Assembly: GCA_948989975.1 (NCBI GenBank)
Contig: CARHSH010000001.1
Coordinates: 82,906-146,905 of the forward strand
Source of the DNA: an uncultured Lachnospiraceae bacterium
Lineage (GTDB): Bacteria; Bacillota; Clostridia; Lachnospirales; Lachnospiraceae
DNA length: 64,000 nucleotides
Reading direction: 5' to 3'
The position numbers and the translations under genes are program-made. The notes beneath the pieces were generated by a model. The model ran no database searches and was not told the DNA's origin. It worked only from the letters and a program-made list of their open reading frames with translations. Positions 894 through 30,866 of this stretch are shown in pieces (position 1 is the first letter of the stretch; every line of letters starts with the position of its first letter).

Positions 894-926
894 AAAGTTG
901 ACAGTTGTCAACTTTTTTGTTTTATA
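894..926 (+). terminator. Perfect palindrome AAAGTTGACAgTTGTCAACTTT followed by a T tract; intrinsic-terminator-like, and also carries TTGACA on both strands (possible operator or -35)
   Basis: 10-bp perfect inverted repeat centred on G904, followed by TTTTTTGTTTT. It sits 40 bp upstream of the 966 start codon. Confidence 0.4.
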
Positions 927-6067: not shown

Positions 6068-7490
6068 CATTCAAAAAGAGAGCAGGATAGTCCTTTACGG
6101 GCATTCGCAATTTGACATTGTGAAAGATAAATTCCGGGAACTAAAAGAACGTGGATATCAGGTGCTTGGATATATAGATCAAAGGGCAAAAGAGATTGAA
6201 ACGTATGTACAGGCGCCTTGTTGGACAGTAGAAGATTTTCCAGTTGGGCTAAAAGAACGTCAAGACATCGTAATTATATTGTTATTGCAAAATGCGCGGA
6301 TGCATGAGTCCATTGTATCTTCACTTTGCGGCAGGGGATTTAAAAAATTTTTATTTTTACCGGAAAAAGCGGATACATCTGAGAAAACATGTATGGTGCA
6401 AAAGTACAATGCCTTTATACGGTCAGAATATGATGAGTTGATGGGGATTCCTGAATGGGACAGCTTGTGTTTAAATTCTGTAAAAGGTGGAAAGCGGTTT
6501 TTGAAATGTGGAAAAGAACGCTGTACGCTTTTGGTTCCGGTGGAAATGCTGTTTCTTTATGAACAGGAGCAGTCTTTAGAAGAAAATATCGCGTTTGCAG
6601 AGGATTATCTGGAATTATTTGCGGTATTAGAAGGAAAGGCATTTGAATGCGGACGTTATTTTAATTTCATGGGAGCGGTGGAGAAGGAAGAAAAAGAAAA
6701 ATTACTGGCTGACCGTTTGGCGTTATATTGTTTGTGGGAACATTACAGACACTGCGATATAAATTATTTTATAGAAGCGGCTGCGCTTGTTTCATGGAAC
6801 CGGAGAGGATATTTTAATATTATTGACGGGCATCATAGAGTGATTTATCTGATGGCAAAGGGGTATAAGAAGATTCCCGTATCCATGCCGCTTAAAGATT
6901 ATGATAAGTGGATAGGAGAGGCAGATCAGGCATTGTCCGCTGCGCTGCGCAGATTGCGCGTCCCAATTCCACATCCGTTTTTTTTGAATGAAGAATGTAT
7001 CTATGAAACGCACTGGCAGAAAGTGATTCATTATTTATATGCGGCAGGACAAAGCAGGGACTGCAGGTTTGTGGAAATAGATACTTATATGGGATATTAT
7101 GCGGGGGCTTTCCAGAGAATTGTAAAAAAAGAAGCTCTGATAGTTTTAGAGAATGAGACGGATAAACGCTTATGTGAAAGTATGCAAAGGCTCATGCATC
7201 AAAAAATACCCATTTTGAACTATCCAGAAGTTATGTTTCGCGAAACCGATCTTGTCTATCTGAAATTGGCTGGAAATGAGGAAGCGTCTTTTATGCGTTT
7301 TATAAAGGACGTAACTGGACAGTGTATTTTGCTGGATATTCCTTGGGAAGAAGAAGGGAAGACGTTAAAAGAGGCTGTCCGCATTCTTGGGGGAGATTTG
7401 AAACAGATAGGCAGTTATCATAGAGATAAGGCGTATGGAATTTATGTGATTGAAAGGAGTGTTGGCAATTATGGCAGAGGTGACGACTAG
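6060..7490 (+). CDS. Uncharacterised protein, paralog 2 of 3 (NeuD-N-like plus ParB/Srx-like DGHHR)
   Basis: Start ATG at 6060 overlaps the stop of paralog 1 by 8 nt (RBS GGAGAAATG). Motifs: IVLYGHSQF...YQVLGYIDQRAKEIE; FNIIDGHHRVIYLMAKGYKKIPV. Confidence 0.5.
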   Translation: MFDIQKESRIVLYGHSQFDIVKDKFRELKERGYQVLGYIDQRAKEIETYVQAPCWTVEDFPVGLKERQDIVIILLLQNARMHESIVSSLCGRGFKKFLFLPEKADTSEKTCMVQKYNAFIRSEYDELMGIPEWDSLCLNSVKGGKRFLKCGKERCTLLVPVEMLFLYEQEQSLEENIAFAEDYLELFAVLEGKAFECGRYFNFMGAVEKEEKEKLLADRLALYCLWEHYRHCDINYFIEAAALVSWNRRGYFNIIDGHHRVIYLMAKGYKKIPVSMPLKDYDKWIGEADQALSAALRRLRVPIPHPFFLNEECIYETHWQKVIHYLYAAGQSRDCRFVEIDTYMGYYAGAFQRIVKKEALIVLENETDKRLCESMQRLMHQKIPILNYPEVMFRETDLVYLKLAGNEEASFMRFIKDVTGQCILLDIPWEEEGKTLKEAVRILGGDLKQIGSYHRDKAYGIYVIERSVGNYGRGDD

Positions 7491-8496
7491 AAGCCTTAAA
7501 AATGAAAGGACAATACTGCGGGACGTTGTCCCGGTGGACACGCCTTTTTTATTAGGCATATTTTTAGGCGATATATGTAATTTTAAATGTAAATACTGCA
7601 TTCAGTCTGCAGATGAATCCGTTGAGGAGAAAAAACAGTTAGTAAGGAAATTTTTAGAGTGGGAAACATTTCTTAAAATTGCAGATTCTGCAAAACAATT
7701 TCCGAAGAAAATTAAAACGGTATTGCTGACAAGCATCGGGGAGCCTTTACTGCATCCGGAAATTGTAAAGATGTTAGAGTATATGAACCGGATTGGGCTG
7801 GCGGATAACTATGAAATCATTACAAATGCATCTATGCTTTCTGTAGATTTGGGAAGACAATTAGTGGATGCAGGGCTTACAAGATTATGCGTTTCGCTTC
7901 AGGGGCTGACGGCGGAAAAATATAAAGACGTCTGCGGCGTAGAGATAGACTATGATGCATTTTACCAAAATTTAAAGAGTTTTTACGAATACAGCAGGGG
8001 AAAGTGCAGCGTACATATTAAGACAGTGGATCTTTCGTTAGAGGACGGTGAAGAAGACGCATTTCTAAAACTCTATGGTCCGATATGCGACACGATTTAC
8101 ATTGATAAAGTCGCTCCGGTGTTTAAAGGCGTAGATTATAGCGGCATTGTGCTTGACGGGGAGCCTTATACAGAAGATAAATACAGGCAAAATGCGGCTG
8201 TGTGCTGTAGTTCTATTTTTTATACATTGTATACGCTTGCGGACGGACGGATCGCTCCTTGTTGTGACCATCCGCAGCCGGTTATTTATGGGGACATTAA
8301 CCAGACTGGGCTTGTGGAAGCATGGTCTTCTGAAAATAGAAAACGGTTTTTAAGACAGCATTTGACCCATAAAAGATGCGAAAACGGCATTTGCGCACAG
8401 TGCGCCGCGCCGCTTGTAAGAGAGTTTGACAGTGATAAGTTAGATGGCTGTGAGGAAGCAATCTTGGCCCGTTTAGAGGGGGGTATTTTTCATTAA
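7471..8496 (+). CDS. Radical SAM enzyme with C-terminal SPASM/twitch-type Cys-rich domain
   Basis: CNFKCKYC (Cx3Cx2C) near the N-terminus. C-terminal cysteines CCSS...CCDHPQP...CENGICAQC. RBS GGAG sits 12 nt upstream of ATG 7471; the track's alternative start is TTG at 7450. Confidence 0.7.
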   Translation: MAEVTTRSLKNERTILRDVVPVDTPFLLGIFLGDICNFKCKYCIQSADESVEEKKQLVRKFLEWETFLKIADSAKQFPKKIKTVLLTSIGEPLLHPEIVKMLEYMNRIGLADNYEIITNASMLSVDLGRQLVDAGLTRLCVSLQGLTAEKYKDVCGVEIDYDAFYQNLKSFYEYSRGKCSVHIKTVDLSLEDGEEDAFLKLYGPICDTIYIDKVAPVFKGVDYSGIVLDGEPYTEDKYRQNAAVCCSSIFYTLYTLADGRIAPCCDHPQPVIYGDINQTGLVEAWSSENRKRFLRQHLTHKRCENGICAQCAAPLVREFDSDKLDGCEEAILARLEGGIFH

Positions 8497-8554
8497 CGAG
8501 AAGAAATTTAGTTTTCAAGATGCAGAAGAAGTTTATATATATGGCGCATCTTAT

Positions 8555-9784
8555 ATGGGTTCCGTCACAGGAAAAGCTTTGTTGGAAAATGGAAAGCGGA
8601 TATGTGGGTTTATAGACAAACGGGCAAAGGACATACGCCAATGCATCGGGTATCCGGTCTATGACATTGAGACATTGAAAAAGAAAGCGGGCAGACACGC
8701 TGTGATTTTTGTGGCGGTGAAAAATGTTTTTTATCATATGGACATTGCAGTGGAATTGTACGCAAATGGCTTTGAGAGAATTATATATAAGTCATGCCAT
8801 GCCATTCATGGAACGATGTCAGGGGAAGAACAGTTATTAGATAAGGCGTATGAACTGATATATAAAACAGGGGACATTCCGGATTTTGAGATACCTATTG
8901 TACTGCCAAAACAGGAATTTCAATGGACGCCAAGCAGGATTCTTTTAGAAACAGAGGAATATGTGACATTGAACGCGCCGTTAGAACAGATTTATACGGG
9001 AGTGACTGCGGCGAAATGGACAAATACGCCCGTTTTGTCATTAATTCCGTATATTGAACTGTTCCGTTATTTTGAAGGGGACAGCCAGTGCAGGCCAGAT
9101 GATTATATTGCGCTTTGTGAGGAAGGGGCGCGGAGTGAACAGATTGAAATAACGGATAGTTGGAAGCAATATGCGCTCGAAAACCGGTTTCATATTTTCG
9201 GGCAAATGCGGTGGCAGTATGAACATGAACCTGAGTTTTTTACCGTACAGGCGCCAGAGGCGGCATGGGACAAAAGGGGATATTTCCGCCTGCTGACCGG
9301 CAAGCACAGGATTTGTTTTTTGATTGCGATGGGAAAGACAAGCGCGCCGCTGAAAATTCGCAAAGACACATGGAGGGCGATCTGTGAAGATCCTAAATTA
9401 CATGAAATCCGCCAGATCTTAGAACGCAGCCCAAATGCGCAAATGCCGCTTCCGCACATTTATTTTCAGGGAAACCGGCAGTTTCATTGTATATTTTATC
9501 AAAAAAAGCTGAGAGAGATTTATTGGCAGATGTACAAAACCGGACAAATGTGTGGGCAGGAAAGAGAAACTTTAGAAATTCTCGATCAGACGCAGGACAG
9601 CGGATATTTTTCCCTGATATTTTCACAGATGGGCTTTTGCGTCTACAGGGATTTCAGGCTGTCTTCCGATAAGAATGAAATTTATCAGAAATTGGGAATG
9701 AAAATTTCAGAACGGGCAGATAGCGCTTCAAAAACGCGGATAAAGCTGGATGGGGAGGGAAATTTTCAAAATGAAAACGACTGA
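8555..9784 (+). CDS. Uncharacterised protein, paralog 3 of 3 (ParB/Srx-like TGKHR); N-terminal Rossmann motif partly lies upstream of the only in-frame ATG
   Basis: FRLLTGKHRICFLIAMGKTSAPL. The in-frame upstream codons encode EEVYIYGASY, which aligns to LWIYGAAFGG in paralog 1, but there is no ATG/GTG/TTG between the stop at 8474-8476 and ATG 8555. Confidence 0.45.
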   Translation: MGSVTGKALLENGKRICGFIDKRAKDIRQCIGYPVYDIETLKKKAGRHAVIFVAVKNVFYHMDIAVELYANGFERIIYKSCHAIHGTMSGEEQLLDKAYELIYKTGDIPDFEIPIVLPKQEFQWTPSRILLETEEYVTLNAPLEQIYTGVTAAKWTNTPVLSLIPYIELFRYFEGDSQCRPDDYIALCEEGARSEQIEITDSWKQYALENRFHIFGQMRWQYEHEPEFFTVQAPEAAWDKRGYFRLLTGKHRICFLIAMGKTSAPLKIRKDTWRAICEDPKLHEIRQILERSPNAQMPLPHIYFQGNRQFHCIFYQKKLREIYWQMYKTGQMCGQERETLEILDQTQDSGYFSLIFSQMGFCVYRDFRLSSDKNEIYQKLGMKISERADSASKTRIKLDGEGNFQNEND

Positions 9785-11315
9785 TTTAGAGTTTGAATAC
9801 AATGAGCGGGCAGACGGCTATATTTATGTGAATGAAGACAAGTTAGAAACAGAGGTAAAAGAATTGCTCCGGTCGGGAAAAGACGTTGAAGCGCTGCGCA
9901 TGAACGAAGAAATTTCAAGGGAGGCCTATCTGTGCCTTACAAAAAAACGGGAAGCTGTTTTAAAGTGGTACCATTTCAAAGAAGAATCTGAGATTTTAGA
10001 GATTGGAGCCGGATACGGGGAACTGACAGAATATCTTTGCCGCCACAGCAGGCATGTGACGAGTTATGAGAGGAAAACCGAGCGCGCCGACATTATTAAA
10101 ATGCGCTGCCAGCCATATGGGAATTTGGACTGCCATTCCGGTTTATTACAAGATATGCGTTGGCAAAAGACATATGATTATATATTTTTGCATGATATTT
10201 TAGCATTATCCCGAAAGTTTTTTAAAGGGGAAGATGCAAGCGTAGAGATGCTTAAGTTTTTGCTTCCATATCTTAAAGAAGACGGAAAATTTATCATAAC
10301 GGTTGAAAACCGTCTTGGGCTTAAGTATTTTGCCGGGGCGGCAGAAGAAATTTCCTCACAGTTTTTTTGGGGGCTTAATCTTTTTGACGAAGATGAAAGA
10401 GGCAGGACATTTTCAAGAAAAGAATTGGAACGGGTTCTGCAAAAAAGTGGTTTAGAAAATATAAATTGGTTTTATCCGTATCCTGATTTGGCATATCCGT
10501 TAGAGATTTATACAGATGAAGTCATGGATAAAATGGGATATGGGATCTCTATGCCGGATTATGAAATTGTTTCAGACCGTTATCAGTTTTTTGATGAGCA
10601 GAGAATGTTTTGGGCTTTAAGGAACGAGGGGATTGCAAATCGGTTTGTGAATGCGTTTTTTGTGGAATGTTCCAGAAAAGAATCCGGCAAACAGCTTTTA
10701 TTTGCGGATTTAAAAAATGGATTTACCATAAAGGAACAGACAGAACAAGGCTTTATAGACGGGAGTGGGAATCTTCTTCCTAAAGGGGAACGGCTCGATG
10801 TGTATCTGGCAGGAAAACTTCAGGAAACCGTGAATTGCAATCTGGGCGGCAAGAATCCATTTATATCTGAAATTTATGATGTGTTCCGTGAAATATATTT
10901 GTATTTACAGAAGTCTTTTTGCAGGATACAGGATTTCTATTATTCAGACGGCAAGATTGCGCTGCATGAACAAAAGCAAGAGAAAAAACCGGCGTCGGAG
11001 TATTGGCGCTGGGAATTGGTTTATGAATGGTATTTCAGGCATGTCATGTTTTACAGAAACGCAAAAAGAAGAATTTTGCTGGAAGATTTGCTGGAGATTG
11101 TACAGGTAAACACCGGGCATATTGCAGAATATTTGAAGGTTTGGAAAGATAAGTCAGAGAAGCATTATATTACGCCGAGATTGTCGCAGAATATGTTTGA
11201 TTTTGAAGCGGAAGCGGCAAAGGATGCGAGGTATTTTGGGCAGGAACTAATAAATAAAAGGACATTAAAAGATAAATTGGAAAGTATGTGGAGCATAGGC
11301 GGGGAAACGGAATGA
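9771..11315 (+). CDS. Class I SAM-dependent methyltransferase with ~300-aa C-terminal extension of unknown function
   Basis: LEIGAGYGELTEYL (motif I) and DYIFLHDIL. RBS GGGGAGGG upstream of ATG 9771. Overlaps the end of the preceding gene. Confidence 0.55.
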   Translation: MKTTDLEFEYNERADGYIYVNEDKLETEVKELLRSGKDVEALRMNEEISREAYLCLTKKREAVLKWYHFKEESEILEIGAGYGELTEYLCRHSRHVTSYERKTERADIIKMRCQPYGNLDCHSGLLQDMRWQKTYDYIFLHDILALSRKFFKGEDASVEMLKFLLPYLKEDGKFIITVENRLGLKYFAGAAEEISSQFFWGLNLFDEDERGRTFSRKELERVLQKSGLENINWFYPYPDLAYPLEIYTDEVMDKMGYGISMPDYEIVSDRYQFFDEQRMFWALRNEGIANRFVNAFFVECSRKESGKQLLFADLKNGFTIKEQTEQGFIDGSGNLLPKGERLDVYLAGKLQETVNCNLGGKNPFISEIYDVFREIYLYLQKSFCRIQDFYYSDGKIALHEQKQEKKPASEYWRWELVYEWYFRHVMFYRNAKRRILLEDLLEIVQVNTGHIAEYLKVWKDKSEKHYITPRLSQNMFDFEAEAAKDARYFGQELINKRTLKDKLESMWSIGGETE

Positions 11316-12178
11316 AAGAGTTGACAAAGGAGATTATCCAATATATCGGCGCGGTCAAAAAGGAGTATGAAAAGAGGTATCATATCCAGATTTTAATGTG
11401 GACAGTGAGAAAATCATTTCTGAGGGGCTTGGAACGAAAGACAAGTGATTTGGACGTTGTGTTTGTGTTCCAAAATTTAGATTCAAAGAAGAAAAAAATT
11501 ATCTTTGAGCGCGCAGACCGCAGAATTGAGCTGCAATGCTGGGACATACAGGATATATTGGAAATCATTGCTGAGAATAAAAGGCGATCTTTACAGGAAA
11601 AGAAGTTTTTCCCATACTATAAAAGCAATGAGTTGAAACATTATATTTTGGATTATTACCATGGCTTTTATGCCGGCTGGGATTCTGCGCTGATGAAAGA
11701 TGAGTATGGATTTTGCCAAAATTGCGGGAAACATATCTTTCATCTTTATGAACCGTTTGTTGTGGCAAATATGTTGTATTTGGATTTAAAAGGGCAGTGT
11801 AAACGCGTCGAAATGGGGTATTGGCTGTCTTTAAATGAATACATTAATGCTATCTGGTCAGGGTTAGCGGGGCTTCATGCGCTTTCAAATGGCAGGCCTT
11901 CCGATACGCAGATACGGTTTTTGGCGGAAACGTATCTGAACGGGGAGGAGGCCAAAATGCTACTAAGCTATGTTGCGCATTTTAAACAGACAGTCCAAAA
12001 GCAGAGTAATTACTGCAATATGGAAGCGTTAAACCAAATGCTTTTGGATCTTAAGCTTAGGTTGGAGAAAAAAATGAAACAGTTTAACATACAAGAGATT
12101 GACATAGAAAAAGAACTTTTGGATATTGAAGGTCAATTAAAGGAAATGAGGAATGTTTATGAAAATTCAAGTTGCTGA
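11312..12178 (+). CDS. Pol-beta-superfamily nucleotidyltransferase-fold protein
   Basis: RGLERKTSDLDVVFVF matches the G[SG]x9-13DxD nucleotidyltransferase signature. ATGA stop/start overlap with the upstream gene. Confidence 0.45.
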   Translation: MKELTKEIIQYIGAVKKEYEKRYHIQILMWTVRKSFLRGLERKTSDLDVVFVFQNLDSKKKKIIFERADRRIELQCWDIQDILEIIAENKRRSLQEKKFFPYYKSNELKHYILDYYHGFYAGWDSALMKDEYGFCQNCGKHIFHLYEPFVVANMLYLDLKGQCKRVEMGYWLSLNEYINAIWSGLAGLHALSNGRPSDTQIRFLAETYLNGEEAKMLLSYVAHFKQTVQKQSNYCNMEALNQMLLDLKLRLEKKMKQFNIQEIDIEKELLDIEGQLKEMRNVYENSSC

Positions 12179-13964
12179 TTATGTTGCGCAGTTTTTAATG
12201 GAAAAAGGAATTACGGATCTTTTTTCAGTAGTAGGCGGCGGCTCGATGTTTCTAAATGATGCGTTTGGGAGGGCAAAAGGCATACGCTGTATTTATAACC
12301 ATCATGAGCAGGCCTGCGCCATGGCGGCAGAAGCTTATTTTAAGTATAAAAACCAAATGGCGGCTGTCTGCGTGACGTCAGGGCCGGGCGGGACAAATGC
12401 TCTGACAGGGGTTCTTGGCGCATGGCAGGATAGCATCCCGTTATTTATTATTTCCGGACAGGTTCGTTATGAGACAACGGTAGACAGCGCAGGACTTTCT
12501 TTGCGGCAGTTTGGGGGACAGGAGCATCAAATTGTGGATACTGTCAAAAATATAACGAAGTATGCGGCAATGGTGAAAAAAGCGGAAGACGTCAGATGGC
12601 ATTTGGAAAAAGCGTATGATATGGCAATGGATGGAAGACGGGGGCCGGTTTGGCTGGATATTCCATTAAATGTGCAGAGCGCTGAAATTGAAACGGAATC
12701 GTTAAAAGGGTTTCAGAAACCTGAGAAAGACACAGAGAAGGCAAAAGGGTATGTAGATTCTATTTTGGAAGAATTAAAGAAGGCGGAACGGCCGTTAATC
12801 ATAGCGGGTTCCGCAGTCCGGACTTCCGGCGCGCAAGACGTTTTTCTCAGGCTGTTGGAACGGCTGCATATTCCGGTGACATATCCTCTGGTCGTGTCCG
12901 ATTTGGTAAGCAATGAGAATCGTCAGGCGGTAGGCTGTTTTGGAGGGGCAGGGACGAGAGCCGGAAATTTTGCAGTCCAAAATGCGGATTTACTGCTTGT
13001 GTTTGGATGCAGAATGGCATTTTCCCATATTGGGTTTAATTATGAAAAATTTTCTCCGGCTTCCAGAAAGATTGTAGTAGACATAGATGAGGCGGAACAG
13101 TCAAAACCCACGATGAAACGCGATATAAAAATATTGGCAGACGTACGGGATATACTTGAAGAAATGGAAAAGCGTGATTTATGCGGTATGCCTTCCTATC
13201 CAAAATGGAATGCGTATTGTCAGGAATTAAAGAAAAGATTTCCGATCTATCAAAAGCATCATGAAACAAGCGAAGATGGAAGGGTCAATCCTTATTTTAT
13301 GGCAAAAGCATTGTCGGATCGTATGGATGAACATGGCATTATCGCGCTTGGCAATAGTTCGGGATTAGATCCAAAACTTCAGTATGGCATAGAGAAACAA
13401 GGGGAACGGGTTATTTTAAATTGTAACTGCGGTTCTATGGGATACTGCCTTCCGGCAGGCATTGGCGCCGCGGCGGCTTCGGGCAGACGGGTGGTTGTAT
13501 ATACAGGGGACGGATGTATGCAGATGAACATACAGGAGCTTTTAACCATTTCTCACAATAAACTTCCGGTAAAAATCATTGTGCTGAATAATAAAGGATA
13601 TGGCGGAGTGGTCGCTACGCAGACTAATTTTTTCGATGGGCATCTGTGCGGCTGTACGGAGGAATCCGGCATCAGTATGCCGGACTTTGAAAAGCTTGCG
13701 TATGCGTATGGATTTCAATATGTCAGGGCCGAGAACCATGAGCAGGTAGAAAAGGCTTTGGATGCATTATTATGTGATGACGCCCCGGCAATATGTGAGG
13801 TGTATCAAGATATGATTCAGGGGATTGAACCTAGGGTTTCAAGCAGGAAGTTAGAAGATGGGACATTGGTTTCAACCGGAATTGATGACTTAGCCCCATT
13901 CCTTCCTTTAGAAGAATATGAGGCCTGCCAATATGAGAATTGGGTGAAAGGCGGAAAAGAATGA
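12153..13964 (+). CDS. Thiamine-diphosphate-dependent enzyme of the acetolactate synthase / YerE-like carboligase family
   Basis: 603 aa. N-terminal TPP-enzyme pyrimidine-binding domain (VVGGGSMFLND, CVTSGPGGTNALTG). C-terminal TPP-binding GDGCMQMN...LNNKGYGGV. Confidence 0.7.
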   Translation: MFMKIQVADYVAQFLMEKGITDLFSVVGGGSMFLNDAFGRAKGIRCIYNHHEQACAMAAEAYFKYKNQMAAVCVTSGPGGTNALTGVLGAWQDSIPLFIISGQVRYETTVDSAGLSLRQFGGQEHQIVDTVKNITKYAAMVKKAEDVRWHLEKAYDMAMDGRRGPVWLDIPLNVQSAEIETESLKGFQKPEKDTEKAKGYVDSILEELKKAERPLIIAGSAVRTSGAQDVFLRLLERLHIPVTYPLVVSDLVSNENRQAVGCFGGAGTRAGNFAVQNADLLLVFGCRMAFSHIGFNYEKFSPASRKIVVDIDEAEQSKPTMKRDIKILADVRDILEEMEKRDLCGMPSYPKWNAYCQELKKRFPIYQKHHETSEDGRVNPYFMAKALSDRMDEHGIIALGNSSGLDPKLQYGIEKQGERVILNCNCGSMGYCLPAGIGAAAASGRRVVVYTGDGCMQMNIQELLTISHNKLPVKIIVLNNKGYGGVVATQTNFFDGHLCGCTEESGISMPDFEKLAYAYGFQYVRAENHEQVEKALDALLCDDAPAICEVYQDMIQGIEPRVSSRKLEDGTLVSTGIDDLAPFLPLEEYEACQYENWVKGGKE

Positions 13965-14872
13965 AACTTTGTTTAGGGACTGTCCAACAGGGATTGGAAT
14001 ATGGGATTAATAATAAGTATGGAAAGCCTTCAAAAGAGTATAGCCAAAAAATCTTTTACGAAGCGGTAAAGCATGGGATTACAATGTTTGATACGGCAAG
14101 GGCATATGGAGATGCAGAATTGCTTTTGGGGGAATATTTAAAAGAACATGGGAATCGAAATGAAATCAAGATCATATCAAAACTCCGTCCGAACATACTA
14201 GAAGGTTGTAAGGATATATACGATACGATATGCCGGGAATGTGAAGGCACTTTAAAGCGGATAGGCGTAGAATCCTTAGACGGATATTTGCTCCATACGC
14301 CGGAGTACATCCGAGATCCCAAAGTCGTTTCGGCTCTTTTAAAATTAAAGGAGGAGGGATATGCTTCGCATATAGGCGTATCCATTTACAATATAGAAGA
14401 CGGGGACGTTGCAATCAATACGGGGGCAGTTGACTATATACAGCTTCCTTTTAGCATATTTGACCAGCGCGGAAAAAACAGCGGATTTCTCCGGCGGGCA
14501 AAAGAAGCCAAAATTACGGTATTTGCAAGAAGCATATTTTTGCAGGGATTGTATTTTATGGATGCGGGCAGTCTGCCGGAAAAAGTGAAACGGGCAGAGC
14601 CTATGCTGCGGAACTGGGAGCTGATTTTAGAGGAGCGTCACGCCAATCGGGAAGAAGTCTTAATTGAATTTGTGAAACAGTCCAAAGAGATTGATTATCT
14701 TGTGTTTGGAGTAGACACAGTGGAACAGTTACAAAGAGATATTTCTGTATTCGAAAGCGAAAGTAAATTAGATGAAACTATTTGGAACATAATCGGTGAA
14801 AAATTTTCCGATGTGGAGGAAAGCATTATAATACCAAGTTTATGGGCGAAACAAGAAAGGAAGGGAAAATGA
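13961..14872 (+). CDS. Aldo/keto reductase family oxidoreductase
   Basis: FDTARAYGDAE, LDGYLLH, IGVSIYN: AKR signatures. ATGA overlap with the TPP enzyme. Confidence 0.7.
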   Translation: MKLCLGTVQQGLEYGINNKYGKPSKEYSQKIFYEAVKHGITMFDTARAYGDAELLLGEYLKEHGNRNEIKIISKLRPNILEGCKDIYDTICRECEGTLKRIGVESLDGYLLHTPEYIRDPKVVSALLKLKEEGYASHIGVSIYNIEDGDVAINTGAVDYIQLPFSIFDQRGKNSGFLRRAKEAKITVFARSIFLQGLYFMDAGSLPEKVKRAEPMLRNWELILEERHANREEVLIEFVKQSKEIDYLVFGVDTVEQLQRDISVFESESKLDETIWNIIGEKFSDVEESIIIPSLWAKQERKGK

Positions 14873-15571
14873 TGGGAGCAAAAAACATTTTTTTAACGAC
14901 AGAAGGGGACGCATGGTATAGGAGAAACCGTGAAAAGTTAGAAGAAGAAAGTGGATTTTCGGCGGTGGATTTAATGATTGATTTTCTAAATAGACAAAAA
15001 AAATCTCTGGGGGGGGGTAAATGGCTTTTCGTGGGATAAGCTGAATATTTTGGAAATCGGGTGTAGTTATGGATATAATCTGGCAAAGTTTTGCGAATCA
15101 TTTTCTTGTCAATGTTATGGAATTGAACCGTCAAAAGAAGCGGTAGAAGATGGAAATAGAAGATATAAGGATCTGCCAATTCAATTAACTCAGGGAACAG
15201 GGGATCTTTTGCCGTATGAGGCGGAATCTATGGATGTGGTTATAATGGGATTTTGCATGTTGTGGATGGAGCGGAAAGACATATTGCAGGCATACGCGCA
15301 AGCAGACAGAGTTTTGAAAACAAATGGGATTATGATGGTTTATGATTTTGATGCGAAAATGCCATATCTTAGGGATAATATCCATAATAGAGAAGTGTTT
15401 ACATATAAAATGGATTATGCGCAGCCGTTCATGGCTTTTCCAAACTATTATTTAATGGATAAGACCGTATTTTGCCATATGGGAAATTTTTTTGACAAAA
15501 GAATACAGGAAAGAATATCTTTGCAGATTTTATATAAAGAGTCTTTGGAGGATGCGTATAGGAAAGGATAA
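14869..15571 (+). pseudogene. Class I SAM methyltransferase (paralog of 15598..16293) split into 65-aa and 173-aa pieces by a +1 frameshift at a G9 tract; candidate phase-variable (currently OFF) gene
   Basis: Upstream frame gives MMGAKNIFLTTEGDAWYRRNREKLEE...FLNRQKKSLGGGKWLFVG*. The +1 frame directly after the G tract gives VNGFSWDKLNILEIGCSYGY, collinear with the intact paralog (MNGFAWERFKILEVGCSYGY). Removing one G (G8) restores a single ORF. Confidence 0.7.
15009..15017. repeat. Homopolymeric G9 tract inside a coding sequence (slipped-strand mispairing site)
   Basis: ctgGGGGGGGGtaaatgg. The paralog carries aagagcggtatgggaatgaatgg at the equivalent site, i.e. no homopolymer. Confidence 0.9.
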
Positions 15572-15597
15572 AGGACCAGAGAAAGGCAGGCGGTAAA

Positions 15598-16293
15598 GTG
15601 GAGGCAAAGGAGATATTCTTAACGACAGAAGGGGACGCATGGTATAGAAGAAACCGTGAAAAACTGGAAGAAACAAAAAATTTTATTGCGGCAGAGATAA
15701 TCATAGAATTTTTAAACAGACAAAAGAGCGGTATGGGAATGAATGGCTTTGCATGGGAGCGTTTTAAGATTTTAGAAGTCGGATGCAGTTATGGTTATCA
15801 TTTGGCAAAGTTTTGTGAAGCGTTTCCCTGCCAGTGCTATGGAATTGAGCCGTCAAAAGAAGCGGTGGAAGACGGCAGTCATAAATATAAAGGCCTGCCT
15901 ATGCAGTTAGTTCAGGGGACAGGTGATTCTCTGCCATATGAAGCGGAATCTATGGATATTGTCATTATGGGGTTTTGTATGTTTTGGATGGATAGAAATC
16001 ATCTGCTGCAGGCGTATGCGGAAGCGGACAGGGTCTTAAAACCAAAGGGATTGCTTATAATTTATGATTTTGACACGAAGCTTCCCTATGTCAGAGACAA
16101 TGCGCACAGTAAAGATGTGGATACATTTAAAATGGATTATGCAAAAGCGTTGACGGCTCTGCCGCATTATTACTTAATGGATAAAACGGTGTTTTGCCAT
16201 AAAGGAAATTATTTTGATGAAGATATACAGGAAAGGATTTCCATGCAGATTCTTTATAAGGAGGATTTCAAAGATGCATATATCAGAGGGTGA
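15598..16293 (+). CDS. Class I SAM-dependent methyltransferase (intact paralog)
   Basis: LEVGCSYGYHLAKF, DIVIMGFCMFWMDR, LKPKGLLIIYD. ~60% identical to the frameshifted copy. Confidence 0.65.
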   Translation: MEAKEIFLTTEGDAWYRRNREKLEETKNFIAAEIIIEFLNRQKSGMGMNGFAWERFKILEVGCSYGYHLAKFCEAFPCQCYGIEPSKEAVEDGSHKYKGLPMQLVQGTGDSLPYEAESMDIVIMGFCMFWMDRNHLLQAYAEADRVLKPKGLLIIYDFDTKLPYVRDNAHSKDVDTFKMDYAKALTALPHYYLMDKTVFCHKGNYFDEDIQERISMQILYKEDFKDAYIRG

Positions 16294-17065
16294 ACGGCCG
16301 GATGTTTTGATTATGATACAGGCGAGGACGGGGTCTTCTAGGCTGGCGAATAAAGTTCTGCATAAAATAAAAGGAATCACGGTATTGGAACATGTGATTA
16401 ACCGGATGCAAAAGTGTGAAAATGCGGACGAAGTGATTGTTGCGACAACTGTTGAACAAAATGATTTAGAGATTGTAAAAATTTGCGCAGAAAAAGGCGT
16501 GCGGGTTTATTGCGGTTCAGAACAGGATGTGCTTGACAGGTATTATCAGGCGGCGCGTTTATTTGGACGGGACGGGGAAAAACATATTGTGAGAATTACA
16601 GCGGATTGCCCTATGCACGATTTTAGGATTGTAGACAGGGTAATTAAAGAGCATTTTGCCCATCATGCAGATTATACCTCTAATGCTGAGAGTGAGACAT
16701 TCCCAGATGGGTTAGATGTGGAAGTCTTTCGGTTTGAGGCATTAGAACAGGCATGGCGGGAAGCCAAATTGGCATCGGATCGTGAGCATGTGACGCAATA
16801 TATCAGAAGATGTGAAACAATGACGAAATATTCCGTAGAAAGCGCGGTTAATTACAGAGAGGAACGCTGGACGCTTGATGAGCCGGAAGACGAAGCGTTT
16901 ATAAAAGAAATTTTTGACAGGTTATATGAGAAAGACCCATTCTTTGGAATGGAGCAGGTATTGGAGACGGAACGAAAAGAGCCGGAATTAAAGAAAATAA
17001 ATGCCGCTTTAATTCGAAATGAAGGGTTATTGAAATCATTAGACCGGGATTATATTGTGAAATAA
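16274..17065 (+). CDS. pseF: CMP-nonulosonate (acylneuraminate/pseudaminate) cytidylyltransferase, CTP_transf_3 family
   Basis: IQARTGSSRLANKVL...VATT at the N-terminus (SpsF/NeuA/PseF family). Start ATG 16274 overlaps the upstream stop. It lies within a pse gene run. Confidence 0.6.
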   Translation: MHISEGERPDVLIMIQARTGSSRLANKVLHKIKGITVLEHVINRMQKCENADEVIVATTVEQNDLEIVKICAEKGVRVYCGSEQDVLDRYYQAARLFGRDGEKHIVRITADCPMHDFRIVDRVIKEHFAHHADYTSNAESETFPDGLDVEVFRFEALEQAWREAKLASDREHVTQYIRRCETMTKYSVESAVNYREERWTLDEPEDEAFIKEIFDRLYEKDPFFGMEQVLETERKEPELKKINAALIRNEGLLKSLDRDYIVK

Positions 17066-17078
17066 GGAGGGGTAAAGT

Positions 17079-18389
17079 ATGGGAAAATCCCAAAAACTTT
17101 ATCAAAGGGCGAAATCAATGATTCCGGGCGGGACGCAGTTACTGAGCAAGCGCCCTGAAATGTTTTTGCCGGAATACTGGCCGGCATATTATAAGAAGGC
17201 AAAAGGATGCTATGTATGGGATCTGGATGACCGTAAATATATGGATGCAAGTTATATGGGAATAGGCGCGAATGTCCTTGGATATGCAGATGAGGATATA
17301 GATCTTGCCGTTGAATGGGCCATTTCTAACGGGAGTATGTGTACATTAAATGCGCCGGAAGAAGTGGCTTTGGCGGAAAAAATTATAGAATTACATCCGT
17401 GGGCAACGCAGGTCAGATATGCAAAAACAGGCGGTGAAGCATTGGCGGTTGCAGTCCGCATTGCGCGGGCATATGCAAAAAAGGACATTATTTTATTTTG
17501 TGGGTACCATGGCTGGAGTGATTGGTATCTGGCCGCAAATTTAAGTGAGGATTCGGCGCTGGACGGTCATTTGATTCAGGGATTAGAGCCGGCGGGCGTA
17601 CCGCGGGGATTGGCGCAGACAGCGTTTCCATTCCGTTATAATGACATAAACAATTTTTTAGAGCTTATTGAAACATACAAAGGGAGGATTGCGGCAGTCG
17701 TTTTAGAGCCGATTCGGAATATTTATCCGAAAAATGATTTCTTGCAGACTGTCCGGGAAGTGACGAAAAGAGAGGATATTGTCTTGATAGCGGACGAGGT
17801 GTCTGCCGGATTCCGTTTGAATTGCGGAGGGGCGCATCTTACATTAGGATTTGAACCGGATATGGCAGTGTTGGCGAAGGCGTTAGGCAACGGGTATCCG
17901 ATGTCTGTTATTTTTGGGAAAGCCGGATATATGGAATCTGCGCAGAGCACATTTATCAGCAGCACTTACTGGACGGAACGGACGGGACTTTGCGCGGCGC
18001 TGGCCGTTATCAAAAAATACCAAGCGGAGCATGTAGAAAAACATCTTGACAGAATAGGGAAGATGGTTTTAGAGGGCTGGAAAGATGCGGCAAACCAATA
18101 TGGGGTACAGATAAAGCTTTCCGGCATACCGCCGCTGGCCCACTTTGAATTTGAATTGGACAGCCCGCTTGCATACAATACTTACTTTACGCAAGAAATG
18201 TTGAAAAAAGGATTTTTGGCAACGAATGCGTTTTATGCGTCGTATGCGCATAAGGAAACGGATATTTTGGAATATTTGAATGCGGCAAACCAAGTGTTTC
18301 GGCAAATATCGGAAATTACAGCATCGTCAGATATTATGCGGCATTTAGACGGCCCATTGCGCCAGACCGGATTTCAAAGGCTTACCTGA
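17079..18389 (+). CDS. Class III (PLP-dependent) aminotransferase, glutamate-1-semialdehyde aminomutase-like
   Basis: 436 aa. SMIPGGTQLLSKRPE, YAKTGGEALAVAVRIARAY, LIADEVSAGFR: typical AT-III motifs. Confidence 0.65.
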   Translation: MGKSQKLYQRAKSMIPGGTQLLSKRPEMFLPEYWPAYYKKAKGCYVWDLDDRKYMDASYMGIGANVLGYADEDIDLAVEWAISNGSMCTLNAPEEVALAEKIIELHPWATQVRYAKTGGEALAVAVRIARAYAKKDIILFCGYHGWSDWYLAANLSEDSALDGHLIQGLEPAGVPRGLAQTAFPFRYNDINNFLELIETYKGRIAAVVLEPIRNIYPKNDFLQTVREVTKREDIVLIADEVSAGFRLNCGGAHLTLGFEPDMAVLAKALGNGYPMSVIFGKAGYMESAQSTFISSTYWTERTGLCAALAVIKKYQAEHVEKHLDRIGKMVLEGWKDAANQYGVQIKLSGIPPLAHFEFELDSPLAYNTYFTQEMLKKGFLATNAFYASYAHKETDILEYLNAANQVFRQISEITASSDIMRHLDGPLRQTGFQRLT

Positions 18390-18413
18390 CACTAGAAGTA
18401 GGAGAAAGGGAAT

Positions 18414-19454
18414 ATGGAAATGAAAATGTATCAGCTTATGAAAGAGCGCGCCTATGTAATTGCGGAAATGTCGGCAAATCATGCGGGCTCGAAAGAAACC
18501 GCGGTAAAACTAATTCATGCAGCGAAAATGGCGGGAGCGGACTGTGTGAAAATACAGACTTACACGGCGGATACGATGACGTTAGATTGTGATAACGCAT
18601 ATTTTCATATTGGAGATGGGACATGGAAAGGCGATACACTGTATTCTTTGTATGAAAAAGCGTATATGCCATGGGAATGGCAGGCGGAATTAAAGGAGGT
18701 CACAGAGACATTAGGCATGGATTTTTTGTCCACTCCATTTGATAAGACGTCGGTGGATTTTTTGGAAAGCCTTGACGTGGCGGCGTATAAGATTGCATCG
18801 TTTGAGCTGACAGATCTTCCGCTGATTCAGTATGTGGCATCGAAAGGAAAACCGGTGATTCTGTCGACGGGCATGGCGGAGTTGTATGAAATAGACGAAG
18901 CTGTAAAAACAATCCAGAGGGAACATAATTCTCAAATTATTTTAATGCACTGCGCAAGCGCGTATCCGGCGATTACAGAGGATATGAATTTGTATACAAT
19001 GCAAAATTTAAAAGAGATTTATCAAGTTCCGGTCGGGCTGTCCGATCATTCCATGGGTTCTGTCGGAGCCATTACAGCGGTGGCGTTAGGCGCGCAAATT
19101 ATTGAAAAACATTTTTGCCTTGACCGGGCCATTGAAACGCCGGATTCCTCATTTTCCATGAACCCTGCTGAGTTTCGGCAGATGGTATGTGACATACGGC
19201 AGGCGGAAAAAGCGTTAGGATTGGTCCGGTATGGGGTGAAAAGCCAAGAAAATCCAAATCTTGGCTTTAGGAGGTCTATTTTTGTCACCCAAGACATTAA
19301 AAAGGGGCAGAAGCTGACAGAAGAAAATATCCGGGTGATTCGGCCGGGATATGGGGCGCCTCCTAAATTTTATGGGGAAGCCTTGGGACAGACGGCTTTA
19401 AGTGACCTGAAAAGAGGCACACCTCTTAAGATTTCGGATATAGGAAGTGTGTAA
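18414..19454 (+). CDS. pseI: Pseudaminic acid synthase (NeuB family)
   Basis: Collinear with PseI: IAEMSANHAGS, VKIQTYTADTMTLD, YKIASFELTDLPLIQYVA, GLSDHS, IEKHFCLDR. Confidence 0.8.
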   Translation: MEMKMYQLMKERAYVIAEMSANHAGSKETAVKLIHAAKMAGADCVKIQTYTADTMTLDCDNAYFHIGDGTWKGDTLYSLYEKAYMPWEWQAELKEVTETLGMDFLSTPFDKTSVDFLESLDVAAYKIASFELTDLPLIQYVASKGKPVILSTGMAELYEIDEAVKTIQREHNSQIILMHCASAYPAITEDMNLYTMQNLKEIYQVPVGLSDHSMGSVGAITAVALGAQIIEKHFCLDRAIETPDSSFSMNPAEFRQMVCDIRQAEKALGLVRYGVKSQENPNLGFRRSIFVTQDIKKGQKLTEENIRVIRPGYGAPPKFYGEALGQTALSDLKRGTPLKISDIGSV

Positions 19455-19469
19455 AAAGAGGGGCGGCTT

Positions 19470-20474
19470 ATGAAAAAAAGAGTGTATATCCGGGCGGACA
19501 TGAACCCTCAAATAGCGACCGGCCATATCAGGCGCTGCCTTGCAATTTCAGACGCGGTCAGGGAACTTGGGGGAGAGGCGGTTTTTTTGACGGCGGATTT
19601 TAATGCAAAACGGCTGTTAGAAGAACATGGGCTAAGATATTATGTTTTAAACAGCAGATGGGATAGGATGCAAGATGAATTAGAGACATTGTATCAGATA
19701 ATCCAGAAAGAAAATATAGATACATTATTAATTGACAGTTATCAGGTTACAAAAAAGTATTTGGAAAATCTTAAGAAAGCTGTTAAAATTGTATTGCTGG
19801 ATGATTTATTTTTGTTTGATTATCCGGCAGACGAAATCATATGTTACGCAAATTACTGCCATCAGTTTCCCTATGATAAAAAAAGATATGAAAACTTATA
19901 TTTGGGCATGGACTATACACCCCTGCGGCGTGTGTTTTGGAAGCCCGAAAAGAAGGAAATCCGAAAAGAAATCAGGCGGGTTTTGGTCTGTTCCGGCGGC
20001 AGTGATATGTTTGGGGCGATAGAAACGATAGTGGGGAAATTAAAAGATCGGTATGAGTGTATCGATGCAGTTTGCGGATTGTATTCTGATTCGTATGAAA
20101 AGCTGTTGGAAACTTATGGAGGATATAAAAATATCCGAATCGTAAAAGACGTAAAAGATATTGAAACTTATATGCTTCAGGCAGATGTGGCAATTTCTGC
20201 GGGCGGGACTGCGTTGTATGAATTATGCGCAGTTGGCGCGCCGGCCATTTCTTATGCAATAGCGGACAACCAGCTTAAAAATGTTATGCAGTTTGAAAAA
20301 GACGGTCTCATTTCATATGCCGGGGACATACGGCGGGAAGATATTAGTGAAAACGTTTTAACTTATTTAGAGAAATATGAGAGCCAAACGACGCGCAGCG
20401 AATTGTCACGGAAAATGCAAAGCGCTGTTGATGGAAAGGGCGCGGTTAGGATTGCAAAGGCTCTCATGGAATAG
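19470..20474 (+). CDS. pseG: UDP-2,4-diacetamido-2,4,6-trideoxy-beta-L-altropyranose hydrolase
   Basis: N-terminal IRADMNPQIATGHIRRCLAISDAV matches the PseG (GT28-like) GxGHxxR motif. 334 aa. Confidence 0.7.
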   Translation: MKKRVYIRADMNPQIATGHIRRCLAISDAVRELGGEAVFLTADFNAKRLLEEHGLRYYVLNSRWDRMQDELETLYQIIQKENIDTLLIDSYQVTKKYLENLKKAVKIVLLDDLFLFDYPADEIICYANYCHQFPYDKKRYENLYLGMDYTPLRRVFWKPEKKEIRKEIRRVLVCSGGSDMFGAIETIVGKLKDRYECIDAVCGLYSDSYEKLLETYGGYKNIRIVKDVKDIETYMLQADVAISAGGTALYELCAVGAPAISYAIADNQLKNVMQFEKDGLISYAGDIRREDISENVLTYLEKYESQTTRSELSRKMQSAVDGKGAVRIAKALME

Positions 20475-20483
20475 AAGCAGGTG

Positions 20484-21611
20484 ATGAAAATGTATATTCC
20501 ATATGGAAAGCAGTTTATAGATGAAGAAGATATAGCGGCAGTGGTTGAGACGCTGAAAAGCGATTGCATTACGACAGGCCCTAGGATAGCGGAGTTTGAG
20601 CAGGCTGTGTGTGAGTATACAGGGGCGAAATACGCGGTGGCGGTTTCGAGTGGAACGGCGGCTCTGCATATTGCCTGTCTGGCGGCAGGCATAGGAAAAG
20701 ATGACGAAGCAGTTACGTCTCCGATGACATTTGCGGCATCTGCAAATTGTGTGTTGTATTGTGGGGGAAGGCCTGTTTTTGCGGACATTAAACCAGATAC
20801 CTATAACTTAGATCCGAATGACGTTAGAAGGAAAATAACGAATAAGACGAAAGCGGTCATTGCGGTAGATTATACAGGGCAGCCGTGTGAGTTGGAAGAA
20901 TTAAAACAAATTGCAAAAGAACGTCAGTTGTATTTGATTGAAGATGCGGCTCATGCCATAGGGGCGGAATACAAGGGCAGGCGGGTAGGCTCAATTTCTG
21001 ATATGACGACATTCAGCCTGCATCCGGTTAAACATATTACGAGCGGAGAGGGCGGCATTGTAACGACAAATAATAAGGAACTCTATAAAAAATTGATTTT
21101 ATTCCGGAATCATGGTATAACAAGAGAGAGAGAAGCTATGACGAAAATGGAAGGCGGCTGGTATTACGAACAGTTAGATTTGGGGTATAATTACCGGATT
21201 ACTGATTTTCAGTGCGCGCTTGCCGCATCACAGCTTAAAAAATTAGATCGGTTTATACAAAAAAGGACGGAACTTGCCGGACGCTATGAGTATGCGTTTC
21301 AAGATATGGAAGATGTCGTTTGCCCGTATCAAAAAGAAGGATGCAAAAACAGTTGGCATTTATATGTGATACAGGTGAAAAACAGGGCAGAGACATTCCG
21401 GAAAATGAGAGAAGCCGGGATTGGCGTAAATGTGCACTATATTCCGGTTTATAAGCATCCGTATTATCAGAGCCTTGGATATGGAAATGTAGAATGTAAA
21501 AATGCAGAATCGCTATATCAGCATATTATCAGTTTGCCTCTCTATTATATGCTTACATATGAACAGCAGGATTATGTGATTGGGCAGTTAAAGAAAATTT
21601 TAATGGGATAA
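20484..21611 (+). CDS. pseC: UDP-4-amino-4,6-dideoxy-N-acetyl-beta-L-altrosamine transaminase (DegT/DnrJ/EryC1 family)
   Basis: TTGPRIAEFEQAVCEYTGAKYAVAVSSGTAALHIA, AVDYTGQPCELEEL, LIEDAAHAIGAEYKGRRVGS, FSLHPVKHIT. Confidence 0.8.
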   Translation: MKMYIPYGKQFIDEEDIAAVVETLKSDCITTGPRIAEFEQAVCEYTGAKYAVAVSSGTAALHIACLAAGIGKDDEAVTSPMTFAASANCVLYCGGRPVFADIKPDTYNLDPNDVRRKITNKTKAVIAVDYTGQPCELEELKQIAKERQLYLIEDAAHAIGAEYKGRRVGSISDMTTFSLHPVKHITSGEGGIVTTNNKELYKKLILFRNHGITREREAMTKMEGGWYYEQLDLGYNYRITDFQCALAASQLKKLDRFIQKRTELAGRYEYAFQDMEDVVCPYQKEGCKNSWHLYVIQVKNRAETFRKMREAGIGVNVHYIPVYKHPYYQSLGYGNVECKNAESLYQHIISLPLYYMLTYEQQDYVIGQLKKILMG

Positions 21612-21621
21612 GGGGCATTTT

Positions 21622-30840: not shown

Positions 30841-30866
30841 GCAGGAGGAAAAAGGAGGCATTTAAT

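Follow-up and report, generated by a model that had tools for sequence, protein, structure and literature searches.

A YerE-like thiamine diphosphate-dependent enzyme in a nonulosonate island of a gut Lachnospiraceae bacterium, a candidate for C-branched sugar synthesis

The window analysed here is a 64,000-nucleotide stretch of DNA (positions 82,906 to 146,905 of contig CARHSH010000001.1, assembly GCA_948989975.1) from an uncultured Lachnospiraceae bacterium, whose species is placed in Eubacterium (human gut) by public gene calls. It carries a 32-kb island of surface-sugar genes, in which the gene of a thiamine diphosphate (ThDP)- and flavin adenine dinucleotide (FAD)-type carboligase (12153..13964, plus strand) is followed by that of an aldo-keto reductase (AKR; 13961..14872, plus strand). 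By sequence, the ThDP enzyme belongs to the YerE-like, ketone-accepting carboligases of the JanthE/YerE-like group, with JanthE as the nearest characterised relative, and it probably places a carbon branch on some nucleotide-linked keto-sugar. A preliminary description of the locus had proposed that the two enzymes form a yersiniose-like branched dideoxyhexose, with the AKR as the finishing reductase, or else that the ThDP enzyme builds an acyl or hydroxyalkyl decoration on pseudaminic acid.

Both genes are genuine, as that description had assumed. The ThDP protein has 603 amino acids (601 from the probable start, the second ATG at 12159, which is also the start in public gene calls) and contains all three domains of its class, TPP_enzyme_N, _M and _C, with Pfam E-values of 8e-30 to 3e-32. 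Its public names are 'thiamine pyrophosphate-binding protein [Eubacterium sp.]' or 'acetolactate synthase large subunit'. The AKR is a full-length protein of 303 amino acids (PF00248, 113.6 bits, residues 9-284). Alignment with IolS (1PYF) places its catalytic Asp, Tyr, Lys and His on the corresponding residues, and the motifs FDTARAYG, IISKL and LLHTP are found. Its mechanical open reading frame (ORF) begins at TTG 13940, but the likely start is the ATG at 13961, which overlaps the TGA of the ThDP gene as ATGA.

The rfb genes are located 8.2 kb downstream of the pair, in the same co-directional train and with genes of pseudaminic acid (Pse) synthesis in between. They encode a divergent glucose-1-phosphate cytidylyltransferase paralogue (RfbF1, 22156..22935; TIGR02623 score of 283 against a cut-off of 300.25), a cytidine diphosphate (CDP)-glucose 4,6-dehydratase (RfbG, 22981..24042; TIGR02622, 435.9 against 278.45), a canonical glucose-1-phosphate cytidylyltransferase (RfbF2, 24039..24812; TIGR02623, 357.9 against 300.25) and a CDP-6-deoxy-D-xylo-4-hexulose 3-dehydrase (RfbH or E1, 24829..26172; NF011936, 710.2 against 423), all on the plus strand. 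RfbH shows the E1 hallmarks, with His229 at the position of the pyridoxal phosphate-binding lysine of PseC and LegC, and with the cysteines C259-x-C261-x7-C269 present. The set for a CDP-3,6-dideoxy-4-keto-hexose, which had been announced for 22156-26172, is therefore found in the island, since RfbG, RfbF2 and RfbH all exceed their cut-offs. One correction concerns 22156-22935, which is a second, divergent RfbF paralogue scoring just below its cut-off.

The whole train runs unbroken on the plus strand from about 966 to 33402, and a terminator-like hairpin is found at either edge (892..917, plus strand, an 11-bp stem followed by a T run; 33433..33480, plus strand, a 20-bp stem at the island end). 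The ORFs scanned between 966 and 33402 are all glycan-related or of unassigned function, and no ilv gene is among them. Upstream of the ThDP gene there are an RmlD-like short-chain dehydrogenase/reductase (SDR; 2688..3569, plus strand, 293 amino acids, Pfam Epimerase and RmlD_sub_bind) and a PseB-type uridine diphosphate (UDP)-GlcNAc 4,6-dehydratase (3598..4599, plus strand; Polysacc_synt_2, 336.7 bits), the product of which is a UDP-4-keto sugar. These are followed by a six-gene block (4610..12178, plus strand) immediately 5′ of the ThDP gene, the order of which is conserved in relatives. In detail, the block comprises three paralogues of unassigned function with 409-493 amino acids (4610-6067, 6009/6060-7490 and 8555-9784) and, according to Pfam, a radical-SAM/SPASM enzyme (7450/7471-8496), a methyltransferase of 514-521 amino acids (9750/9771-11315) and a nucleotidyltransferase-like protein (11288/11312-12178).

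Downstream of the AKR, two tandem methyltransferase paralogues (14869..16293, plus strand) precede a nonulosonate module (16274..22074, plus strand) composed of an SpsF-like cytidylyltransferase, a class-III aminotransferase, PseI (468.9 in its curated model against a cut-off of 340.25), PseG, PseC and PseH. The Pse set of the island is complete, that is, PseB, PseC, PseH, PseG and PseI with the SpsF-like cytidylyltransferase. A legionaminic acid (Leg)-type set is also present beyond the rfb genes (26213..33047, plus strand), including a PglD-like acetyltransferase, NeuB (484 against 399.65), NeuC (434.6 against 235.9), a cytidylyltransferase, a CBS-nucleotidyltransferase, a dehydratase and an aminotransferase. 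In total, two NeuB-type synthases and two cytidylyltransferases are found in the window.

The ThDP protein keeps, in alignment, the catalytic Glu52, the GDG of residues 452-454 and the NN of residues 479-480. All curated models of acetohydroxyacid synthase (AHAS) are missed by more than 200 bits. The best of them, TIGR00118, gives 313.7 against a cut-off of 538.35, and the others, including NF006524 (310.6 against 738), give 220-311 against cut-offs of 738-1084. When PDB entries are ranked by sequence, JanthE (8RPH) comes first with 340 bits, followed by PpYerE (236), which is only marginally above Escherichia coli AHAS I (212), and further down by plant AHAS (195), glyoxylate carboligase (145) and the catabolic acetolactate synthases (103-114 bits).

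A neighbor-joining tree with 100 bootstraps was constructed from 35 family members together with JanthE, PpYerE, E. coli AHAS I and Arabidopsis AHAS, these four references being rebuilt from PDB alignments. All relatives of the window protein group with it and with JanthE at 100/100 bootstrap support, and both AHAS sequences are placed outside. For the AlphaFold2 model of the protein (pLDDT 84.8, pTM 0.87), the six top Foldseek matches are all chains of JanthE (TM 0.87-0.89), and AHAS entries come next (TM 0.77-0.82). The family and JanthE also have in common an insertion of ~9 residues after the GQV(R/K)Y strand and a C-terminal tail (EP...DG..VS...DD..PFL), both of which are unaligned in AHAS and PpYerE.

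The tryptophan at Arabidopsis position W574 sets the 2-ketobutyrate preference of AHAS. The window protein has Thr489 in this column, and Thr is also found in the aligned family (Ser in one member) and in JanthE; the residue is not universal in AHAS, as E. coli AHAS I has Gln. Beside the ThDP gene there is no AHAS small-subunit gene and no ilv or als neighbor, its neighbors being the nucleotidyltransferase-like gene and the AKR. A genuine acetolactate/acetohydroxyacid synthase of branched-chain amino acid or acetoin metabolism, placed by chance inside a glycan island, would agree with the fold, with the cofactor motifs and with the public annotation of cluster members as 'acetolactate synthase large subunit'. 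On the contrary, the failed models, the fully supported split of the tree, the Thr where AHAS II/III and plant AHAS carry the specificity Trp, the lack of small-subunit, ilv or als genes and the location of all relatives within glycan clusters argue against it, and this reading is extremely improbable. The enzyme is almost certainly not an AHAS. The YerE-like identity suggested in the preliminary description was supported through JanthE by sequence, tree and fold, with PpYerE only marginally nearer than AHAS by sequence and outside the clade, and the clustering with AHAS that it had considered was not observed, in a tree whose references are JanthE, PpYerE and two AHAS only.

Three further ideas were rejected. 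The AHAS arginine to which the carboxylate of the acceptor binds (Arabidopsis R377) does not discriminate AHAS from YerE-like enzymes, because PpYerE and all Type I relatives (see below) keep Arg; this column separates only the window subclade (Ser/Ala/Thr) from the rfb-linked relatives. A sulfoacetaldehyde (Xsc) reading was discarded with an Xsc model score of 190 against a cut-off of 620, and a phosphonate reading with no phosphoenolpyruvate mutase in the island.

Relatives of the ThDP enzyme were collected by a pattern scan of one genome per species (GTDB), which gave at least 595 confirmed matches, and the best 80 of them were kept. Loci are numbered with the prefix L. A metagenome scan for near relatives contributed two short close loci only. 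The following neighbor counts refer to the 41 loci from other species with full 9-10-kb flanks. Within 10 kb, rfbH is found in 32 of the 41 loci, and rfbF, rfbG and rfbH occur together in 24. An SDR accompanies the ThDP gene in 36 loci and a 2-keto-acid-forming enzyme (HMGL-like aldolase or NeuB homologue) in 33, whereas an AKR is found in none (0/41). This gene neighborhood is the strongest evidence that the family branches a CDP-4-keto-3,6-dideoxyhexose.

Three types of loci were distinguished. Type I (43-48% identity to the window protein) includes rfbF-G-H, an HMGL-like aldolase, a HAD phosphatase, the ThDP enzyme, an SDR and a GT2 glycosyltransferase, and its hosts are many Clostridia, Bacteroidales, spirochaetes and Fibrobacter. 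These loci reproduce the published cluster design for erwiniose, caryophyllose and gastriose, which unites genes for a deoxy-keto-sugar with those of an aldolase, a ThDP enzyme and an oxidoreductase (PMC9306805). Type II (50-53% identity), from several phyla, combines rfbF/G/H with a tight ThDP-NeuB-NeuC(-SDR or CBS) cassette. Type III (60-99% identity) is the window's own type. RfbF1 forms its own clade (100% of 50 bootstraps), the members of which, among the loci studied, adjoin ThDP genes of Types I and III. This clade includes three Type III species, in five Type I loci a member of it is the neighbor of the ThDP gene, and tandems of RfbF1 and canonical RfbF stand beside ThDP genes in L025, L026, L031, L033 and L070. 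In this way, the link of Type III to the CDP-sugar system is kept.

The Type II cassette adjoins rfbF/G/H in L001, L002, L007, L008, L010, L011, L013, L014 and L015, from lineages as different as Desulfatiglandales, Caulobacteraceae, Paenibacillus, Peptostreptococcaceae, Ruminococcus, Oscillospiraceae and Lachnospiraceae; in L001, it is next to flagellin and FliD. The NeuC of the cassette passes the model of the hydrolysing UDP-GlcNAc 2-epimerase, and the NeuB of L001, the sole one tested, is under the curated cut-offs for both NeuB and PseI. With a purpose-built hidden Markov model, no cytidine monophosphate (CMP)-transferase was detected in 9 of the 12 such Type II loci. Among the 41 loci, NeuB and the HMGL-like aldolase almost exclude each other: 2 loci have both, 24 have the aldolase alone, 7 have NeuB alone and 8 lack both (Fisher p = 0.0065). 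Since 3-deoxy-2-keto acids, the product type of NeuB, are of the functional type preferred as donors by ErwE-like enzymes (PMC9306805), this exclusion indicates that NeuB may replace the aldolase as donor supplier. A sugar acid as the donor, that is, a NeuB-made 3-deoxy-2-ulosonic acid (via NeuC or the Pse enzymes) which would be decarboxylated and joined to the keto-sugar, is nevertheless improbable. Speculatively, the product would then be a branched monosaccharide of ~14 carbons and not a CMP-activated sialic-acid-like sugar, and PseI would be the supplier in the window.

The gene order of Type III was compared in the window and L004, L006, L088, L089, L100, L101 and L102. Either the AKR itself is the next gene on the 3′ side of the ThDP gene, or PseB (sometimes PseC) intervenes. 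Beyond the AKR are the genes of a methyltransferase, the SpsF-like cytidylyltransferase, the class-III aminotransferase and, last, a NeuB-type synthase. Genes rfbG/H are found in the window's species and L088 (77% identity), where rfbF1 and rfbG are in the locus and an RfbH homologue (82%) is on a contig of 169,532 bp, the same size as the contig of L088. The RfbH search was saturated at 81% identity with Roseburia, and among the matches listed only L088 was confirmed. Two gene fusions occur in this type, an AKR-GNAT acetyltransferase of 485 amino acids in L101 (11814-13271) and a GNAT-class-III aminotransferase of 656 amino acids in L100 (14852-16822). They suggest that the tailoring enzymes work on one amine-bearing intermediate.

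From the family, the gene content and the rfb linkage, we infer the following chemistry. The ThDP enzyme would decarboxylate a 2-keto acid on ThDP, and the acyl-anion equivalent formed in this way would attack the carbonyl at C-4 of a nucleotide-linked 4-keto-6-deoxy sugar, which would yield a tertiary alcohol bearing an acyl branch. The likeliest acceptor here would be CDP-4-keto-3,6-dideoxy-D-glucose, supplied by RfbF2, RfbG and RfbH of the same gene train, and RfbH would receive its electrons from a general cellular reductase, because no E3 is encoded in the island. The side-chain ketone would then be reduced, or possibly transaminated, the SDR (2688-3569) and the AKR (13961-14872) being the two candidate reductases, and the product would be built, together with Pse- and Leg-type acids, into a glycan of the cell surface, probably that of flagellin. 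As a whole, with the CDP-dideoxyhexulose as the favored acceptor, this reading is the one tentatively preferred, although it falls a little short of being likely. The acceptor taken by itself is somewhat more doubtful.

Several observations weigh against this proposal. No pyruvate aldolase is encoded in the island, where NeuB-type synthases are the only enzymes that form 2-keto acids. No E3 (AscD/DdhD-type) reductase was found either, as the scanned ORFs (those of the island and the large ones of the 64 kb) have no Fer2 or FNR-type domain; a general cellular reductase could stand in for E3, as with related 3-dehydrases. PpYerE, the sole true YerE homologue in the tree, is located outside the clade of JanthE and the window protein, and its 29% identity to the latter is at the level of AHAS. 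The remaining points come from Type III itself. The nucleotidyltransferase-like gene is directly 5′ of the ThDP gene in every locus of this type seen, and the six-gene block is complete wherever the upstream DNA is present. Its order (two paralogues, the radical-SAM/SPASM enzyme, the third paralogue, the methyltransferase of ~514 amino acids and the nucleotidyltransferase-like protein) is kept in L088, L089, L100, L101 and L102 and partly in L004, where the genes are in a different order, and L006, where the block is cut short. PseB comes straight after the ThDP gene in five Type III loci (L004, L005, L006, L089 and L102), and neither rfbG nor rfbH is found within 10 kb in the informative Type III loci L004, L089 and L102. 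Type III is tied more tightly to PseB and to a seven-gene block than to rfbG/H. Finally, three charged pocket residues of the rfb-linked relatives are lost in this type. The column of JanthE V121 has Gly/Ser in Type III and Asp/Glu in Types I and II, that of P293 has Ser/Ala/Thr and Lys/Arg (Asn in one), and that of K567 has Arg/Cys/His and Lys/Arg, respectively. With these substitutions, Type III probably uses another donor, another acceptor or both. The changed pocket and the tighter linkage to PseB and the block make the CDP-sugar acceptor uncertain for this island. The branched dideoxyhexose of the preliminary description is therefore supported with respect to the family, through the rfbH linkage (32/41), but less so for Type III, in which the pocket differs and the rfbG/H linkage is variable.

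The same observations direct attention to the product of PseB, UDP-2-acetamido-2,6-dideoxy-L-arabino-hex-4-ulose, as the acceptor. It would be branched by the same chemistry and, after removal of UDP and condensation with phosphoenolpyruvate by a NeuB-type synthase, would give a Pse-like nonulosonate with a branch at C-7, which the AKR, the class-III aminotransferase and the GNAT would tailor and the SpsF-like cytidylyltransferase would activate. Apart from the position of PseB in the five loci, a Pse-type module is found in every Type III locus with enough flank and a NeuB-type synthase in all of these except L004, which ends at PseC. L088 keeps PseB, and in its 22 kb none of PseC, PseG and PseH was seen. 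The two fusions tie the tailoring enzymes to each other, the pocket changes fit another nucleotide sugar, and the window has its synthases and cytidylyltransferases in duplicate. However, PseB is needed for ordinary Pse synthesis anyway and its adjacency may be meaningless, while in the window it is 7.5 kb upstream of the ThDP gene. To our knowledge, there are no C-branched nonulosonates, and rfbG/F2/H and the recurrent RfbF1 would be left without a role. This route is unlikely. Even less likely is that no sugar is branched at all and that a small acyloin or hydroxy-acyl unit, made from 2-keto acids or aldehydes and first aminated, reduced or methylated, is placed on Pse or Leg, with the rfb genes serving a 3,6-dideoxyhexose of the ordinary kind, for which the RmlD-like SDR would perform the last step. 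The Type III ThDP gene is indeed locked to methyltransferase-like, radical-SAM, nucleotidyltransferase-like and class-III aminotransferase genes and not to rfbG/H, JanthE-type enzymes also perform aldehyde-type carboligations with a broad donor range (PMC12188165), and the SDR resembles 4-ketoreductases of the RmlD type. On the other hand, sugar branching is what the rfb-linked relatives all indicate, Type III is connected to the CDP-sugar system through the RfbF1 paralogue, homologues of the SDR are beside the ThDP gene in Type II loci, and no gene was identified that would activate or transfer an acyl group of this specific kind. A ThDP-built decoration related to Pse, the second option of the preliminary description, remains a candidate.

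The partner reductase of the preferred carboligase reaction is a separate matter. AKRs with 49-52% identity to that of the window are found in Pse clusters without a ThDP enzyme and without rfb genes, in three of the three loci examined (L090, the complete genome of Anaeromicropila herbilytica, and the metagenome contigs L091 and L092), where their neighbors are PseB, PseC, PseG, PseH, NeuB and cytidylyltransferase genes. This is a further caution on the proposal above. It also favors an AKR which belongs to the Pse-type module and reduces some carbonyl there, so that its adjacency to the ThDP gene would only reflect the gene order of the island. The contrast between SDR and AKR among the ThDP loci from other species (36/41 and 0/41) is in line with this. 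PseB and/or PseC separate the AKR from the ThDP gene in L006, L089 and L102, and six genes do so in L004; wherever PseB or more genes intervene, the AKR stays with the methyltransferase, cytidylyltransferase and aminotransferase genes. The AKRs of these four loci are only 36-39% identical to the window AKR, less than those of the ThDP-free clusters, so that the trees of the two enzymes disagree. In favor of a partnership, the ATGA overlap couples the translation of the AKR to the ThDP gene in the window, the AKR is directly 3′ of the ThDP gene in four species-level loci (window, L088, L100 and L101), and both genes are present in all 7 Type III loci with enough DNA (7/7). Moreover, an acyloin product requires a ketoreductase, a step for which AKRs are competent, and the AKR-GNAT and GNAT-aminotransferase fusions were counted in favor of the AKR role. 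On balance, an AKR independent of the ThDP enzyme is the somewhat likelier case, and its function as the YerF-type reductase of the branch, put forward in the preliminary description, is doubtful and was not sustained by the gene neighborhoods and the disagreeing trees. The SDR at 2688-3569 competes with the AKR for the role of branch reductase. Its best PDB match is a dTDP-4-dehydrorhamnose reductase, and its homologues are beside or near the ThDP gene in the Type II loci L001, L009 and L016 and likewise in L030, L066 and four loci of Type III. Literature searches joining flagellin glycosylation, AKRs and ThDP enzymes returned nothing relevant.

Some additional features of the window were recorded. 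The three paralogues of the six-gene block have no significant Pfam match, and PDB sequence searches with the 4610-6067 paralogue and with the nucleotidyltransferase-like protein gave nothing usable. The paralogues share a GKHR/DGHHR-like motif and have weak similarity (25-27%) to methyltransferase-containing proteins of the Type II loci L007 and L010. The first of the tandem methyltransferase genes (14869-15571) is split by a G9 tract (15009-15017) into pieces of 56 and 173 amino acids. Removal of one G gives a protein of 234 amino acids, close to the intact tandem copy (15598-16293). The G9 is identical in two further assemblies of the same species (L086 and L087), and by its sequence it resembles a phase-variation switch of the slipped-strand kind within the island.

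At the left edge, a non-coding G10 homopolymer (761-770) is placed between ORF 42-668 and the terminator at 892-917, ~200 bp 5′ of the large GT2 gene (966-2681). ORF 42-668 is similar to the C-terminal part of the 571-amino-acid GT2 protein, so the island may start with tandem paralogous glycosyltransferases and may be cut by the edge of the window. On the 3′ side of the island, a flavin mononucleotide riboswitch (33990-34151) and the rib operon come next, and the genes there are for riboflavin and biotin. In the biotin operon, ORF 38271-40256 (661 amino acids) joins BioW (6-carboxyhexanoate-CoA ligase) to a class I/II aminotransferase domain (BioF-like). Two full-length TwoAYGGAY RNA motifs (48840-49005, minus strand, 135 bits; 49636-49801, plus strand, 120 bits) are located on opposite strands with a gap of ~630 bp, just 5′ of a ROK-family gene.

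The known C-branched higher sugars, that is, yersiniose, erwiniose and caryophyllose, come from the lipopolysaccharides or lipooligosaccharides of a few Gram-negatives and mycobacteria. The YerE/JanthE-like family is large and uncharacterised, with hundreds of species-level matches in gut Clostridia, Bacteroidales, spirochaetes and Desulfobacterota, most of which sit beside rfbF/G/H. The widespread annotation of these genes as 'acetolactate synthase large subunit' is misleading. If Type III enzymes, of which the window's occurs in a common human-gut Eubacterium, make a branched sugar, an unrecognised class of sugars would exist in the flagellin or surface glycans of commensals, with a bearing on immune recognition. 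The family would also offer new ketone-accepting carboligases for biocatalysis.

JanthE of Janthinobacterium sp. HH01 (8RPH/8RPI/8RPJ) is the closest of the known systems. It belongs to the YerE-like subclass, has ThDP and FAD as bound cofactors and joins 2-keto acids with ketones, but its natural substrates are unknown (PMC12188165), and for this reason it offers no physiological precedent. It resembles the window protein in identity (33% over 583 columns), in fold (TM 0.89), in the three-domain FAD-type architecture, in the catalytic Glu and in the Thr at the column of the AHAS Trp574, and it is the sister of the window family (100% bootstrap) with the insertion and the C-terminal tail in common. 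The two differ in the motif, which is CDG in JanthE and the canonical GDG in the window protein, and in the pocket, where V121, Y268, P293, Y297 and K567 of JanthE correspond to G, A, S, F and R. The AHAS enzymes (IlvB/IlvG/IlvI) have the fold, the ThDP and FAD motifs and ~29% identity in common with the window protein, but they are distinguished by a regulatory subunit, an ilv context, the specificity Trp and a separate clade. For the AKR, the best solved matches are the AKR11-type IolS and YhdN/GSP69 of Bacillus subtilis (61 and 50 bits, respectively), with the tetrad kept. The similarity is low, and the window AKR belongs to its own family of ~50% identity inside Pse-type clusters, not in stress or detoxification settings.

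In Yersinia pseudotuberculosis, YerE transfers a ThDP-bound acyl anion, derived from a 2-keto acid, onto CDP-4-keto-3,6-dideoxy-D-glucose, and a reduction with NAD(P)H follows (PMC9306805, PMC12247030). The reaction class proposed for the window is the same as that of YerE/YerF in yersiniose A synthesis, and the acceptor genes are present. The differences are that PpYerE (5AHK; 29% identity, no better than AHAS) ranks only 37th by fold, that YerE is set in an O-antigen cluster and the window enzyme in a Pse/Leg island of a Gram-positive, and that the adjacent reductase is an AKR, while an SDR is usual beside the ThDP relatives (36/41). The design of the erwiniose (ErwE/ErwF/ErwI/ErwJ), caryophyllose (MMAR_2332) and gastriose (MyGE) systems is mirrored by the Type I relatives; that scheme has an aldolase, whereas the window has no pyruvate aldolase, another pocket and an extra six-gene block. 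YerE-like enzymes and the logic of their clusters are already known, and a review mentions an in-silico survey of more than 200 such enzymes (PMC12247030). The window gene belongs to a family that is sister to JanthE and, inside it, to a subclade distinguished by its changed pocket, a new block of conserved genes and its nonulosonate surroundings.

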